Positions 24,356 through 27,110 of a stretch of 41,027 nt of DNA are shown here, one piece after another; within the stretch, counting starts at the first letter, position 1; each line of letters opens with the position of its first letter. The stretch lies in NCBI GenBank assembly GCA_038248695.1, contig JBBRXE010000002.1, positions 1-41,027 of the forward strand. Reading direction: 5' to 3'. Made by a program: the position numbers and the translations under genes. The stretch comes from Candidatus Limnocylindria bacterium (GTDB lineage Bacteria; Chloroflexota; Limnocylindria; QHBO01). Under the pieces are notes generated by a model. The model searched no databases, was not told where the DNA came from, and saw only the letters and a program-made list of their open reading frames with translations.

Positions 24356-25647
24356 CGCTCGCCCTCCGCCTCGAGACGCGCCCGCAGGCGCTGCGCGGGC
24401 TGCCAGGCCGGATCGCGCACGAAGCGCACCTCGTCGGGCGCGGAGCCCAGCTCGGCGCTGAAGATGTCCGCCAACCGGTAGCCGTCGGCGGCGATCCCGT
24501 TCAGGGCCGAGATCTGGCGCACGATGCGGCGCCCCGAGCGCAGCCGGCGCAGGACGACCACCAGGTCGAAGACCCGCGCGATGTAGGTCCGCAGGTCGGC
24601 CACCGTCAGGTCGCGCATCGACTGGCGCGCCAGCAGCTCGAGGCGGAACAGGGCATCCTCGGCCGAGCTGGCGTGAATGGTGGTCGCCGAGCCGTCGTGC
24701 CCGGTGTGCAGCGCCTGCAGGGTGTAGAAGGCTTCCTTGGGCAGGCGGATCTCGCCGACGATGAGGCGATCGGGTCGCATGCGCAGGGCGTTGGCCACCA
24801 GATCCCCGACATCGAGCAGGCGGCTCTCCGCTTCTCCGCTCGCCAGGTCGTGGGGGTGCACGGTCTCCAGATTGAAGCGATCGGGATTCTCCAGGGCCAG
24901 CTCGGCGGTGTCCTCCACGACGCCCACCCGCTCGGCTGGGTCGAACAGGTCGGTCAGGGAGCGCAGCAGCGTCGTCTTGCCCGCCCCGGTCTCGCCGGCG
25001 ACCAGCAGGTTGGCCTTGGCGCGCACCAGCCGGGTCAGGAAGTCGGCCATCTCCGGGGTGATGCCGCCCTCGCTCACCCAGTCACGGCCGTGACGGCCGC
25101 CGGGGGCCAGATCGAGGCGCAGGCGGTTGAACTTGCGGATGGCGAGATACGGCCCGCCAACCGGCGGCAGCACCGCGTTGACACGGGAGCCGTCGGCCAT
25201 GCGGGCGTCGACGATGGGGTGCGCCACCGACAGCTCGCGCCCGGCCAGGGCGGCGATGCGCTCGGCGATCTCGATCAGCTCGGCGTCGCCGGTCAGGCGC
25301 ACGCCGGCGGGCTCGAGCCTGCCGGCGCGCTCGACGAAGACCGCGTCGGGGGCGTTGACCAGGATGTCGGAGACCTCGGCATCGGCGACCAGCGACTGCA
25401 GCGGCCCGAGTCCGCAGACCGCGGCCTCGACCGCGGCCACCAGGGCCGGCACCGGGGCCAGCTCAAGCTCGGGGTCTTCGAGGATGGCGGCGATCGTGTC
25501 GCGTACGAGCTGTTCGCGCTCGGGGGTGGGGTCGAACGGATTGAGCACCTCGGGGCTCAGGCGCGCGACGAGCATGCGGCGCACCTTGCTCAAGGTGGCG
25601 CCCGACAGCGGCGAAGGCAGCGGGACGGGGAGCGGCTGCGGGCTCAT
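24346..25647 (-). CDS. cpaF: CpaF/TadA secretion ATPase (T2SS E / VirB11 superfamily)
   Basis: Walker A is LVAGETGAGKTTLLRSL. Other motifs are RLIVGEIRLPKEAFYTLQALHTGHDGSATTIHASSAEDA. An ATGA overlap links it to the upstream gene. Confidence 0.9.
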   Translation of the reverse strand: MSPQPLPVPLPSPLSGATLSKVRRMLVARLSPEVLNPFDPTPEREQLVRDTIAAILEDPELELAPVPALVAAVEAAVCGLGPLQSLVADAEVSDILVNAPDAVFVERAGRLEPAGVRLTGDAELIEIAERIAALAGRELSVAHPIVDARMADGSRVNAVLPPVGGPYLAIRKFNRLRLDLAPGGRHGRDWVSEGGITPEMADFLTRLVRAKANLLVAGETGAGKTTLLRSLTDLFDPAERVGVVEDTAELALENPDRFNLETVHPHDLASGEAESRLLDVGDLVANALRMRPDRLIVGEIRLPKEAFYTLQALHTGHDGSATTIHASSAEDALFRLELLARQSMRDLTVADLRTYIARVFDLVVVLRRLRSGRRIVRQISALNGIAADGYRLADIFSAELGSAPDEVRFVRDPAWQPAQRLRARLEAEGERWT

Positions 25648-27110
25648 CGCTGCGCGCCGCGGCCCAGGATCGCCAGCGCGCGCGCCGAGCCGAGCAGCCC
25701 GCGGCGGCGCGCAGCGGGGGCACCATCGCTGAGCAGCGGCCAGACCGTGGCGGCCACGCCACGCAGCGCGGGTTCGAGGCCCGGATCGAGCGTCCAGGCC
25801 GGCTCCCCGCGCTCGCAGGCAGCGATGAACGCGGGGTTGACGGGCACCGCGCCGGCGATCGGCAGGCCGTATTCGTGGGCATGGGCGCGCACCGCCGTAT
25901 CGTCGTCGGCCAGGTTGGCGACCAGGCTCAGCTTGCGACCGGCGCCCAGGCCGCGGCTGACGTTGGCCAGGCGGTGGACGTCGGGCAGCGACTCCAGGCT
26001 GGGGCGGATGACGCCCAGCAGCAGGTCGGCACGGTCGATCAGGTGGCGATGGCCGTCCTCCAGATGCGAGCCGAGGTCGACCACCAGTAGTTGGAAGCCT
26101 GCCTCCTGCACGCCGCCCAGAAAGTCGTCAACGTGATCGGCGCGGAACTGCTGGCGCTCGGCCTCGGGCTGCAGCTCGGGGCCCAGGGTCATGGGGTGCG
26201 CCGGCGCGATGGCCACTTCGACCCCGGAGCGGGTGGCGACCAGCAGCTCCTCGACCGCGCGCGGCTGGTGCCAGCGGATCGGGTTGGCGGCGCGCGACAG
26301 CGCTTCGCCGTCGAGCCCCAGGCGGATGCCAGCGGCACCGCTGCTGACCCGGCTGGCGTCCAGCAGCGCGACGCGCAGCGGCCGCTCCTCGCCCTCGAGG
26401 GTGCGGTAGCGGGCGAAGGCCGCCACCAGGCTGGCGACCTCGACCGCCAGGGTGGTCTTGCCCACCCCGCCGGCGAACGAGGTGAAACAGGCGATGCGCA
26501 GGCCGGGCAGCAGGTGTGGGACCGGGGTGCGTCCCTGCGGACGCCCTCGCGTCGCGACCGCCAGCGGCTCGGCCGAGCCGTCATCCTCCGTCCGCAGCGC
26601 ATGCGGGCGGAGCAAGGGTACCTCCCTCATGGTCACCTGCTCGCGCGCAGGAGGGCGTCGAGGTGGCGCCTCGTCGGGTGACGCGGCGCCGGATGGCGAC
26701 GAGACCGCCTGCCGTGCTGGGCTATTGTCCCCGACCTGCCAAGCCGGATCACCCTGGTGACCCGTGCTCTGCGGCCCGCCAGTCTGCATATCGGTGCTCG
26801 ATGTCACCACTTTTTGACCGACAAGCGCTGCCTGCCATGTCCGGCGGCTGCGCGCATAGCGCAGCGCACGCAGCAGCCAGCAGTAGGCGGGCTCGCCGCG
26901 CACCGGCAGGGCCGCGGCCAGCGCGATCGGCCCGGCGAGCAGGATGATCAAGGCGATCTTGAGTGGCTCCCAGACCGGGATGAGGTTGAGCGCCGCGGCG
27001 ACTAGCAGCGCGACCCCGCCGATGCCGAGCTGGATGCCGCTCAGGCCCAAGGCGACCGGCTCATCGCGCACCGCGTTCTCGGGGACCTCGACCAGGCCGC
27101 GCCCGTTCAT
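25644..27110 (-). CDS. Fusion protein: N-terminal PrgI/VirB3-like membrane domain + C-terminal CpaE/TadZ/ParA-MinD-type ATPase, 488 aa
   Basis: Residues ~1-95 (VEVPENAVRDEPVALGLSGIQLGIGGVALLVAAALNLI...PIALAAALPVRGEPAYCWLLRALRYARS) look PrgI-like, with two transmembrane helices. A low-complexity linker follows. The ATPase half has IACFTSFAGGVGKTTLAVEVA (deviant Walker A) and FQLLVVDLGSHLED. Confidence 0.7.
   Translation of the reverse strand: MNGRGLVEVPENAVRDEPVALGLSGIQLGIGGVALLVAAALNLIPVWEPLKIALIILLAGPIALAAALPVRGEPAYCWLLRALRYARSRRTWQAALVGQKVVTSSTDMQTGGPQSTGHQGDPAWQVGDNSPARQAVSSPSGAASPDEAPPRRPPAREQVTMREVPLLRPHALRTEDDGSAEPLAVATRGRPQGRTPVPHLLPGLRIACFTSFAGGVGKTTLAVEVASLVAAFARYRTLEGEERPLRVALLDASRVSSGAAGIRLGLDGEALSRAANPIRWHQPRAVEELLVATRSGVEVAIAPAHPMTLGPELQPEAERQQFRADHVDDFLGGVQEAGFQLLVVDLGSHLEDGHRHLIDRADLLLGVIRPSLESLPDVHRLANVSRGLGAGRKLSLVANLADDDTAVRAHAHEYGLPIAGAVPVNPAFIAACERGEPAWTLDPGLEPALRGVAATVWPLLSDGAPAARRRGLLGSARALAILGRGAQR

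Follow-up and report, generated by a model that had tools for sequence, protein, structure and literature searches.

The window analysed here, a stretch of 41,027 nucleotides (nt) from a Candidatus Limnocylindria bacterium (contig JBBRXE010000002.1 of assembly GCA_038248695.1), contains at 25644..27110 on the minus strand a gene in which a membrane hairpin of the VirB3/PrgI type, a subunit of type IV secretion systems (T4SSs), is joined to an ATPase of the MinD/ParA fold. This is a genuine single-gene fusion, native to its hosts and widely recurring. Moreover, the constant genomic partner of the superfamily to which it belongs is VirB4, usually with a Tad pilus gene set nested between both genes. 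A first-pass annotation of the window had described the product as a single open reading frame (ORF) of 488 amino acids in three parts, and the ORF itself, hydropathy, Pfam, AlphaFold2 and Foldseek bore this out in every particular; the two ATPase motifs that it named, FAGGVGKTTLA and LLVVDLGSH, are present and conserved. The gene and its parts, with the evidence for each, are the following:

25644..27110, minus strand: whole fusion gene, 488 amino acids, PrgI/VirB3-like hairpin, disordered tether and MinD-like ATPase domain (ORF, in-frame third-position GC, homologues)
26820..27110, minus strand: PrgI/VirB3-type domain, residues 1-97 (Pfam PrgI, hydropathy, AlphaFold2 helices, column identity)
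26520..26840, minus strand: disordered, compositionally biased tether, residues 91-197, 107 residues (predicted local distance difference test (pLDDT), alignment, composition, third-position GC)
26592..26630, minus strand: conserved island in the tether, residues 161-173, MREVPLLRPHALR (column counts over 86 family members)
25722..26519, minus strand: MinD/FlhG/FleN-fold P-loop ATPase domain, residues 198-463 (PDB profile, Foldseek, pLDDT)
26451..26480, minus strand: deviant Walker A motif SFAGGVGKTT, residues 211-220 (conserved alignment columns)
25647..25721, minus strand: basic/hydrophobic C-terminal tail, residues 464-488, ending in ...RRRGLLGSARALAILGRGAQR (tail alignment, hydrophobic moment)

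Reading frame and recurrence of the fusion

The ORF begins with ATG and its boundaries are exactly those first given. Its start codon shares four nucleotides (ATGA) with the stop of the upstream gene for a 367-amino-acid membrane protein, and a like overlap joins its stop to the ATG of the CpaF gene downstream; the gene is translationally coupled to both neighbours. The GC content of the region is about 73% and long spurious ORFs are common, one of 487 amino acids lying on the opposite strand. In the frame of the fusion, third-position GC is 0.8-1.0 over both folded domains and 0.63-0.73 in the linker, where the frame is kept; the same frame gives 0.40-0.63 upstream of the start and 0.67-0.93 downstream, the neighbours using other frames. 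We regard the ORF as a real gene because of this codon bias and because a search over 5.8 billion proteins yielded 223 homologues. Of these, more than 100 are full length (450-500 amino acids, 44-77% identity, 98-100% coverage), many with precomputed matches to both PF01656 and PF12666, and 86 members make up the close-family alignment used below.

A locus scan of one genome per GTDB species located 47 loci, nearly all in metagenome-assembled genomes (MAGs) of Chloroflexota (Limnocylindria or 'Chloroflexia') and one in an Acidimicrobiia MAG. There are often several loci per genome, and they lie inside megabase chromosomal contigs; a tblastn search of 72,556 PLSDB plasmids with the fusion gave no match at 1e-3. 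A single intact ORF of 450-519 amino acids was present in 37 of the 45 loci checked, the remainder being cut by a contig end or by premature stops. The recurrence of the fusion in homologous loci is thus confirmed.

The first-pass annotation had raised the concern that two genes, prgI and a MinD-like gene, had been merged by an assembly or frameshift error in the linker. Third-position GC is indeed lower there, and 'split' database entries exist in which a PrgI protein of 100-160 amino acids is paired with an ATPase protein of 326-345 (in some, 100-111 and 326-329). However, 37 independent species-representative loci keep one ORF through a linker that varies in sequence and length, and most of the splits could be traced: L003 carries multiple frameshifts, one of them inside the hairpin itself; L006 has an insertion sequence (DDE_3 transposase, L006 5296..6384) placed exactly within the region that codes for the linker; the element of L005 is truncated; in L008 the gene calls of the contig are fragmented; and the short protein of L009 was called at a distance of 141 nt from the contig end. 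L004, whose contig also has fragmented gene calls, is the one exception. Among the loci traced, no lineage was found in which the two halves demonstrably form separate genes. Since one intact ORF is conserved in 37 of 45 loci, an artefact is excluded for practical purposes and we assign it next to no probability. The insertion in L006 leaves a 110-amino-acid product, which NCBI calls a stand-alone 'PrgI family protein', a misleading entry.

The N-terminal hairpin

The domain runs from a conserved cytoplasmic lead (VEVPENAVRDEPxAxGL) through two transmembrane (TM) helices, TM1 at about residues 22-45 and TM2 at about 48-70, to a basic helix at residues 75-87 (LPVRGEPAYxWLxRAxRY). Hydropathy gives two hydrophobic helices at about 22-45 and 50-70 with basic residues after the second, and AlphaFold2, run on the 86-sequence alignment, gives helices at residues 25-42, 48-67 and 75-87; both ends of the hairpin are expected to lie in the cytoplasm. 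Two TM helices followed by a C-terminal helix agree with the definition of VirB3 in PMC12857230. The Pfam family PrgI (PF12666) matched the window protein over residues 9-88 (profile positions 2-85 of 91, E = 1.2e-4, 22.9 bits) and 85 of the 86 family members scanned singly (E <= 0.01, best 4.3e-8).

The hairpin has a mean column identity of 77% and 24 invariant positions; the P-loop apart, no segment of the protein is as well conserved, and to judge from the alignment this conservation is far above what a plain anchor would need. The invariant polar and aromatic residues (P10, E11, N12, Q27, G72, E73, P74, Y76, W78, R81 and W92) speak in favour of specific contacts. Apart from the fusion, no PrgI-like sequence was found in the window, and no other VirB3 candidate either. 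As regards gene position, a VirB6-like gene lies directly upstream and virB4 belongs to the same operon but is 6.7 kb downstream; as regards size, the hairpin is the first 90 or so residues of a 488-residue protein instead of a small stand-alone protein of 10-15 kDa.

The ATPase domain and its C-terminal tail

AlphaFold2 predicted a confident alpha/beta fold for the ATPase domain (about residues 200-463, pLDDT mostly 85-98). Its profile, searched against PDB sequences, matched Aquifex MinD (4v02, E = 3e-9) over profile positions 13-249, that is, the whole fold, and Foldseek matched it to FleN (5j1j, 1e-13), FlhG (4rz3), MinD (1hyq and 4v02) and ParA/Soj, with E values of about 1e-13 to 1e-10 and target-normalised TM-scores of 0.7-0.8 (0.75-0.81 for 5j1j, 4rz3 and 1hyq). 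The CbiA/MinD P-loop of Pfam was found at residues 209-237 of the window protein and CbiA in 75 of the 86 homologues, while NCBIfam gave weak matches to MinD, ParA and BcsQ alone. F212, G214, G215, G217, T219, D251 and D345 are invariant in the family, so that, besides the MinD/ParA fold, the residues of P-loop, switch and Walker B are in place. What is lacking is the KGGxGK[ST] signature lysine, whose position holds Ala213 in the window protein, Val in a GRTT subclade, and K, N, S, A, R, Q, E or V in the wider superfamily. The same subclade (SFVGGTGRTT; P0056, P0064, P0069 and P0115) has Arg in place of the P-loop lysine, Lys218. Such a deviant Walker A motif, without the signature lysine and with Arg in a subclade, favours a TadZ-like switch over a fast ATPase and suggests that the domain works by nucleotide-dependent dimerisation rather than by fast hydrolysis.

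A specific assignment of the domain to TadZ was considered and is unsupported, as NCBIfam yielded only the weak matches named above, the PDB profile search found MinD and not TadZ, and the 50 Foldseek matches listed include no TadZ entry. The name 'CpaE/TadZ' comes from the position of the gene, upstream of and overlapping cpaF, and not from family membership. A proper description of the protein is that of a MinD-superfamily ATPase in the CpaE position to which a VirB3-type hairpin is fused; it should not be filed as TadZ.

The end of the tail (about residues 469-488, RGLLGSARALAILGRGAQR, 25647..25706) is loosely conserved as G(L/V)L..ARRLA.LGR, with a hydrophobic moment of 0.4-0.63 and low pLDDT. 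By analogy with MinD and CpaE (PMC13170226) it may be an amphipathic membrane helix, in which case the protein would touch the membrane at both ends.

The tether and its conserved island

The tether is rich in P, A, G, R, S, T and Q, its pLDDT is below 50 for residues 98-197 (AlphaFold2), and its alignment columns are gappy and unconserved, both length and sequence differing between homologues. Within it lies the short island, in which 70 of the 86 members have Met161 and 81 of 86 an Arg at +7; a hydrophobic run of L/V comes next, and the sequence that precedes the island ATG is GCAGGTGACC. The 'short' proteins of 326-329 amino acids that gene callers place on frameshifted contigs begin approximately at this island. 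The island could be a short linear or docking motif, or a putative internal start that would yield a soluble ATPase isoform of 328 amino acids.

Linkage of the fusion superfamily to VirB4

An exhaustive profile search with the ATPase domain gave 604 cluster representatives at E <= 1e-3, and 95 distant relatives from this wider superfamily were examined. About 55 of the 95, their N-termini judged by eye, have the same architecture as the window protein: first a PrgI-type motif (for example FADGFDxPDxIAFGLxAPQL or RAPQGLDAEDRIALGL), then hydrophobic helices, one or two in number, a variable-length linker and finally an SLKGGVGKTT- or SLNGGSGRTT-type P-loop. Pfam PrgI was matched independently by 28 of the 95, and in the distant fusion members P0189 and P0384 (33.7 and 30.0 bits) above the Pfam cut-off. 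The relatives that are not fusions are mostly CpaE-type proteins with a receiver (REC) domain, and these are the nearest non-fusion relatives of the fusion's ATPase domain. Response_reg was matched by 18 of the 95 and TIGR03815 (CpaE_hom_Actino) by 52 (E <= 0.001), the one per-protein score shown for the latter, that of P0411, being 37.3 bits and far under the 154.45-bit cut-off; NCBIfam NF047398, a 'KGGVGR-motif variant AAA ATPase', was matched by 86 of 95. The distant fusion members are named MinD-like ATPase, ParA family, AAA family or hypothetical, one of them 'pilus assembly protein CpaE' (NCBI), and their MAG labels include Dormibacteraeota and Chloroflexota.

The gene order around these relatives reveals the link to VirB4. 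Loci L057 and L060 are chromosomal and have the order fusion-CpaF-TadB-TadC-Flp-x-x-CpaB-VirB4 amid housekeeping genes; no VirB2, VirB6, hydrolase, coupling protein or relaxase was detected in them. In L058, VirB4 directly overlaps the fusion and there are no Tad genes. A metagenome scan, tabulated by tblastn, added 61 further loci: nine complete blocks of the type fusion...Tad...CpaB-VirB4, 12 of the same type cut by contig ends, and 24 in which VirB4 follows the fusion immediately, with an overlap of 1-13 nt and no Tad genes. The VirB4-position ATPases of the superfamily belong to the VirB4 family (1e-45 to 1e-54 against NF045971). VirB4 is the constant partner because the fusion either sits directly on virB4 (24 loci) or heads a Tad block that ends in VirB4, and this constancy is what would be expected if the hairpin were a working VirB3, given the contact between VirB3 and VirB4 and the adjacency of their genes. 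The adjacency to cpaF, with overlapping stop and start, holds in the 47 Chloroflexota loci and in the chromosomal loci with Tad genes and VirB4, and not in the 24 Tad-less ones.

The two-gene module of the fusion and an overlapping virB4, with no other secretion gene detected, was seen on at least 24 contigs (L058, L081-L105), and in the four loci whose neighbours were examined it stands amid housekeeping genes. In L058 the Pfam neighbours are trehalose-phosphate synthase, a hydrolase and aldehyde dehydrogenase upstream and ribonucleotide reductase downstream; in L098, L100 and L102, whose ORFs were listed, the flanking ORFs recur between loci.

The operon and the mobile element in the window

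The fusion belongs to an operon with a fixed order: VirB2-like pilin, VirB6-like protein, fusion, CpaF, TadB, TadC, Flp, TadE..., CpaB, VirB4, hydrolase, coupling protein and relaxase. According to tblastn of the window proteins, this order is identical across the 47 Chloroflexota loci. The genes of the window, in the direction of reading, are:

29209-29502 and 28619-29404, minus strand: two Phd/YefM-domain genes (Pfam)
28215..28613, minus strand: VirB2-like T4SS pilin, 132 amino acids (PF18895 T4SS_pilin, 30.6 bits, above the cut-off of 26.6; position conserved)
27107..28210, minus strand: hydrophobic, probably polytopic membrane protein of 367 amino acids, VirB6/PrgH candidate (4-nt overlap with the fusion)
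24346..25647, minus strand: CpaF/TadA-type secretion ATPase (T2SSE 2.6e-41, TIGR03819 3.4e-70, VirB11 4.9e-53)
18971..24355, minus strand: rest of the Tad block, TadB to CpaB/RcpC (Pfam, NCBIfam, ORF map, synteny in 47 loci), made up of the next seven lines
23471-24355, minus strand: TadB (T2SSF, weak)
22554-23465, minus strand: TadC (T2SSF, weak)
22345-22548, minus strand: Flp-like pilin, 67 amino acids (DUF4244, weak)
21918-22340, minus strand: TadE (PF07811 above cut-off)
within ORF 21427-22038 (21427-21915 used for the synteny search), minus strand: TadE/G-like gene (Pfam Tad, weak)
20888-21424 and 19680-20891, minus strand: two genes without a firm match (ORF map)
18971-19666, minus strand: CpaB/RcpC (Pfam, TIGR03177)
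16767-18974, minus strand: VirB4-family ATPase, 735 amino acids (NF045971, VirB4-like CD1110, 1.9e-51; TIGR00929 4.7e-30; P-loop_TraG; AAA_10)
15844-16770, minus strand: SLT+M23 cell-wall hydrolase (Pfam)
13564-15759, minus strand: coupling-protein-like ATPase (DUF87; weak TraD and TrbC matches)
12507-13595, minus strand: Replic_Relax protein (Pfam)

The order looks like that of the Gram-positive genes prgH-prgI-prgJ-prgK, which correspond to VirB6-VirB3-VirB4-VirB1 (PMC12857230), except that a complete Tad block lies nested within it, separating VirB3 from VirB4, and the junction of the T4SS order with the nested block is the fusion itself. In every Chloroflexota locus the VirB6 candidate lies immediately upstream of the fusion; the window protein has no Pfam match and its L003 homologue matches TrbL_3 weakly. 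No hydrophobic segment was seen within the first 70 or so residues of the window VirB4. In the gene tables examined for the fusion loci, no separate CpaE/TadZ-like gene was found.

Several further observations concern the other genes of the operon. Two unrelated pilins are encoded, the VirB2-like T4SS pilin and the 67-amino-acid Flp-like protein, which carries a G/xxxEY-type motif (GLTTLEYVIAAG); both are kept in the Chloroflexota loci with enough sequence, and the T4SS pilin is absent from the chromosomal loci with Tad genes and VirB4. The CpaF-like ATPase scores nearly as well with the VirB11 (TIGR02788, 4.9e-53) and TrbB models as with the TadA model, and might double as the VirB11-type ATPase; this type of ATPase is not associated with Gram-positive T4SSs (2025 T4SS review, PMC12857230). 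The 178-amino-acid protein at 20888..21424 matches weakly the NTF2-like domains TcaA_5th and DUF4440. As T4SS subunits of the VirB8/PrgL/TcpC type have NTF2-like folds, it may be the VirB8 analogue of the operon. The operon opens with the two Phd/YefM antitoxin-domain genes, beside which no toxin gene was identified; the larger one (28619-29404) has an equally placed homologue in almost every related locus (tblastn), and both appear in some gene tables. They may be transcriptional regulators of the transfer operon rather than antitoxins. Elsewhere in the window, a Type ISP restriction-modification enzyme appears to be split over two overlapping ORFs (5969..9243, plus strand), with positions 1-108 of the Type_ISP_C profile at the end of the first ORF and positions 109-341 opening the second, an arrangement that points to a frameshift, a pseudogene or programmed frameshifting.

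Interpretation of the fusion and alternative explanations

From the observed architecture, conservation, synteny, fold assignments and VirB4 linkage we infer the protein-protein contacts, the ATPase behaviour and the conjugation function of the following model. The fusion would be a membrane-anchored organiser offering two surfaces for interaction, which is the most economical model and a reading whose chances we consider evenly balanced. The hairpin and its C-terminal helix would bind and anchor an otherwise soluble VirB4, as VirB3 does in canonical T4SSs, and the tethered MinD-like domain would play the CpaE/TadZ role, forming dimers on the CpaF hexamer and the TadB/TadC platform. A tether of about 100 residues would allow both hexamers at one site, where a VirB4-based DNA-transfer channel and a Tad pilus motor could be assembled together. 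On the window element, which also encodes the VirB2-like pilin, the VirB6-like protein, the hydrolase, the coupling protein and the relaxase, the product would be a single hybrid Tad/T4SS conjugation apparatus in a host that, as a member of the Chloroflexota, presumably lacks an outer membrane. The first-pass annotation had proposed a physical coupling of the two machines; a coupling of the Tad and T4SS motors is plausible, and comparative genomics supports it better than before.

Several results weigh against this model of a membrane-anchored organiser. The PrgI score of the window protein is under the curated Pfam cut-off of 27 bits, so that the proposed PrgI similarity of the N-terminal domain stands at the level of the family (85 of 86) and falls short in the window protein itself. 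A Foldseek search with the isolated hairpin model returned nothing significant (best E 2.4), and the hairpin profile had no match at E <= 10 among PDB sequences; for a hairpin of 90 residues such null searches are uninformative and are not evidence against VirB3. The window protein contains no TadZ_N or receiver (Response_reg) domain according to Pfam, these two are absent among the 10 families matched by its 86 close relatives, and no match to TIGR03815 or another CpaE model was obtained at E <= 0.01. Neither is TadZ among the best 50 Foldseek matches listed, which comprise FleN, FlhG, MinD and Soj as well as further P-loop ATPases that share the fold. The 'CpaE/TadZ-type' label given to the ATPase at first was thus not established. 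The presence of Arg for the Walker A lysine in a subclade implies that ATP turnover may be dispensable. As for gene content, in L059 and L071 the fusion is accompanied by CpaF-TadB-TadC and VirB4 is absent from the locus sequence, and the 24 Tad-less loci imply that the MinD-like domain may serve VirB4 rather than CpaF. Finally, nine of the 23 loci of the integrative and conjugative element (ICE) type with at least 3.8 kb from the cpaB start onward (L013, L015, L016, L021, L040-L043 and L056) have no VirB4 in that stretch, and the hydrolase and coupling protein were also not found after cpaB. The 10-kb flanks of such loci hold unrelated genes, among them an MvdD-type ATP-grasp gene (L021) and an extracytoplasmic function (ECF) sigma factor gene (L015), and these loci could represent cargo insertions or a VirB4-less variant.

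These results leave room for other explanations, of which the strongest takes the MinD-like domain as an accessory dedicated to VirB4, regulating or positioning its hexamer and not that of CpaF, with the Tad module inserted into an ancestral fusion-virB4 pair; the protein would then be no CpaE/TadZ analogue and would not have to couple two machines. The 24 metagenomic loci in which virB4 directly follows and overlaps the fusion, without Tad genes and in a conserved housekeeping neighbourhood, are in its favour, as are the lack of TadZ_N, REC and TIGR03815 matches in the window protein and the fact that the Tad block of the chromosomal loci ends with VirB4. However, wherever Tad genes exist the fusion is always immediately before cpaF and overlaps it, which is the canonical TadZ/CpaE position; L059 and L071 keep the fusion with CpaF-TadB-TadC and have no VirB4 in the locus sequence; outside the fusions, the ATPase domain is closest to CpaE-type proteins with a REC domain; and the gene tables examined show no separate CpaE/TadZ-like gene. 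We consider this explanation unlikely, yet a serious competitor. Conversely, the fusion could be a CpaE/TadZ analogue whose two-TM segment is only an anchor, replacing the amphipathic helix and receiver domain, with a likeness to PrgI due to descent without function or to convergence and with no VirB4 contact. The sub-threshold PrgI score, the hairpin's lack of a significant fold or PDB match, the weak matches of related N-termini to other two-TM families (EccE and SCO6880), the Tad-only loci L059 and L071 and the nine ICE-type loci without an adjacent VirB4 would all fit. Against it stand the strong conservation of the hairpin, whose invariant polar and aromatic residues argue for specific contacts, the matching of PrgI by nearly the whole family and above the cut-off in some distant members, the VirB6-like gene upstream, as in prgH-prgI, and the recurrent direct overlap of the fusion with virB4, as expected of VirB3. 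It appears distinctly improbable.

A partition role, in which the C-terminal domain would be a membrane-tethered ParA that segregates or maintains the mobile element and is unrelated to either secretion machine, is suggested by weak generic matches to ParA partition models and by the frequency of ParA genes on mobile elements. But the gene is embedded and translationally coupled in a secretion operon, no ParB-like Pfam match was found among the window ORFs scanned, the same fusion occurs at non-mobile chromosomal loci, a membrane anchor is atypical of DNA-partition ParAs, and the signature lysine used by ParA/Soj dimers is absent. We give this role very little credence.

Extending the organiser model, it is conceivable, and we propose it tentatively as something rather less than probable, that Chloroflexota, Dormibacterota-like bacteria and their relatives have an unrecognised class of envelope machine in which a Tad (type IVc) pilus motor and VirB4 are held in one complex by a VirB3::MinD-like scaffold. 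Its chromosomal form, be it fusion-Tad-VirB4 or fusion-VirB4 alone, would be a non-conjugative pilus or secretion system, and its ICE form, that of the window, would carry out Tad-pilus-dependent conjugation in bacteria without an outer membrane.

Significance

Little is understood of the means by which bacteria that lack an outer membrane bring their conjugation machines into contact with recipients, and equally little of the recruitment of T4SS ATPases to other envelope machines, as with PAPI-1 and the type IV pilus or pRAW and ESX. The 2025 nomenclature review (PMC12857230) names the compatibility between T4SSs and other systems as an open question, and it never mentions Tad or Chloroflexota. 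In the literature searched (VirB4 with TadA/TadB, CpaF, or Tad pilus/monoderm/Chloroflexi) we found no description of a VirB3::MinD-like fusion and no paper mentioning both PrgI and TadZ; the nearest items were a gene list for Sulfobacillus plasmids and a general discussion of hybrid systems, both taken up below. The covalent fusion, its superfamily and the nested Tad-in-T4SS order therefore appear to be undescribed, hybrid T4SS/pilus systems being already known.

The fusion of a VirB4-anchoring subunit to an ATPase in the CpaE position would be a concrete, testable molecular link between two otherwise unrelated machines, and the loci provide a natural series for dissecting it: fusion with VirB4 only, fusion with Tad only, fusion with Tad and VirB4, and the full ICE. 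The family also marks a group of integrative elements present in several copies in Chloroflexota genomes, and it flags as secretion or pilus components hundreds of proteins that databases label 'Mrp/MinD-like ATPase', 'BcsQ', 'CooC1' or 'hypothetical'. Specialists in T4SSs or Tad pili are likely to find the fusion surprising; its hosts are uncultured, and its mechanism is a proposed one.

Comparison with known systems

Like VirB3, PrgI of pCF10 and TrwM of R388, the fusion has two TM helices followed by a C-terminal helix, similarity to PF12666 over 80 residues, a VirB6-like gene directly upstream and, within its operon, a VirB4 gene, which in 24 related loci overlaps the fusion directly. In R388, VirB3 makes contact with VirB4 at the latter's N-terminal domain; for PrgI, 1:1 binding to PrgJ is predicted; and virB3 genes normally adjoin virB4 (PMC12857230). 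The fusion differs in adding a tether of about 100 amino acids and an ATPase domain of 270 to what is otherwise a stand-alone protein of 10-15 kDa, and in the position of the window virB4, 6.7 kb downstream behind the Tad block. Known VirB3 fusions join VirB4 itself and not a MinD-like protein.

With TadZ/CpaE, the organiser protein of Tad (type IVc) pili from the ParA/MinD family, the fusion shares a MinD-superfamily fold whose Walker A motif is deviant, and a gene just upstream of CpaF/TadA, after which come TadB, TadC, Flp and TadE. The operon shows no further CpaE-like gene, and the nearest non-fusion relatives are REC-domain CpaE-type proteins. TadZ has been described as having an 'atypical Walker-A ... 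low ATPase activity' (PMC6668835), and in Caulobacter CpaE dimers ring the CpaF hexamer at the inner membrane, held by a C-terminal amphipathic helix and linked by their receiver domains (PMC13170226). By contrast, the fusion lacks the atypical receiver domain (TadZ_N/REC) and any match to a TadZ/CpaE family model, is attached by an N-terminal two-TM hairpin instead of a C-terminal amphipathic helix (its tail remains a candidate for such a helix), and is also found with VirB4 and no Tad genes. MinD and FlhG (FleN), which are membrane-associated positioning ATPases, give the best structural and sequence matches (Foldseek E about 1e-13, MinD profile 3e-9), act at the membrane, and have the Walker A, switch and Walker B aspartates that are conserved in the fusion. 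Nevertheless, the fusion has AGG for KGG, would be permanently tethered whereas they cycle on and off the membrane, and lies within a secretion operon with no MinC/MinE or flagellar partners.

Members related to the fusion also match weakly the N-terminal 80 or so residues of the NCBIfam model SCO6880 (actinobacterial, about 477 amino acids), and NF047398 with the ATPase half (86 of 95), so that both halves have curated but uncharacterised look-alikes. All these matches are far below the curated cut-offs, the window protein matches neither model at E <= 0.01, and neither model describes the two-domain architecture.

PAPI-1 (type IV pilus) and mycobacterial pRAW (ESX, the type VII secretion system) are known hybrid conjugation systems, in which VirB4/VirD4 is combined with a second machine (PMC12857230), and the Sulfobacillus plasmids pL15 and pY0017 carry MinD-like, CpaF, TadB/C and VirB4 genes together (PMC6803676). 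The window element resembles such chimeric systems in that a mobile element encodes a pilus machine of the type IV-filament type along with VirB4 and a coupling protein, and for the Sulfobacillus plasmids the gene classes listed are also the same. By contrast, the hosts here are uncultured Chloroflexota and Dormibacterota-like bacteria, and PLSDB plasmids carry no homologue of the fusion. For PAPI-1, pRAW and the Sulfobacillus plasmids, no covalent link between components of the two machines is described in the literature searched, whereas in the window the Tad block is nested in a T4SS gene order and the VirB3-type subunit is fused to the ATPase in the CpaE position.

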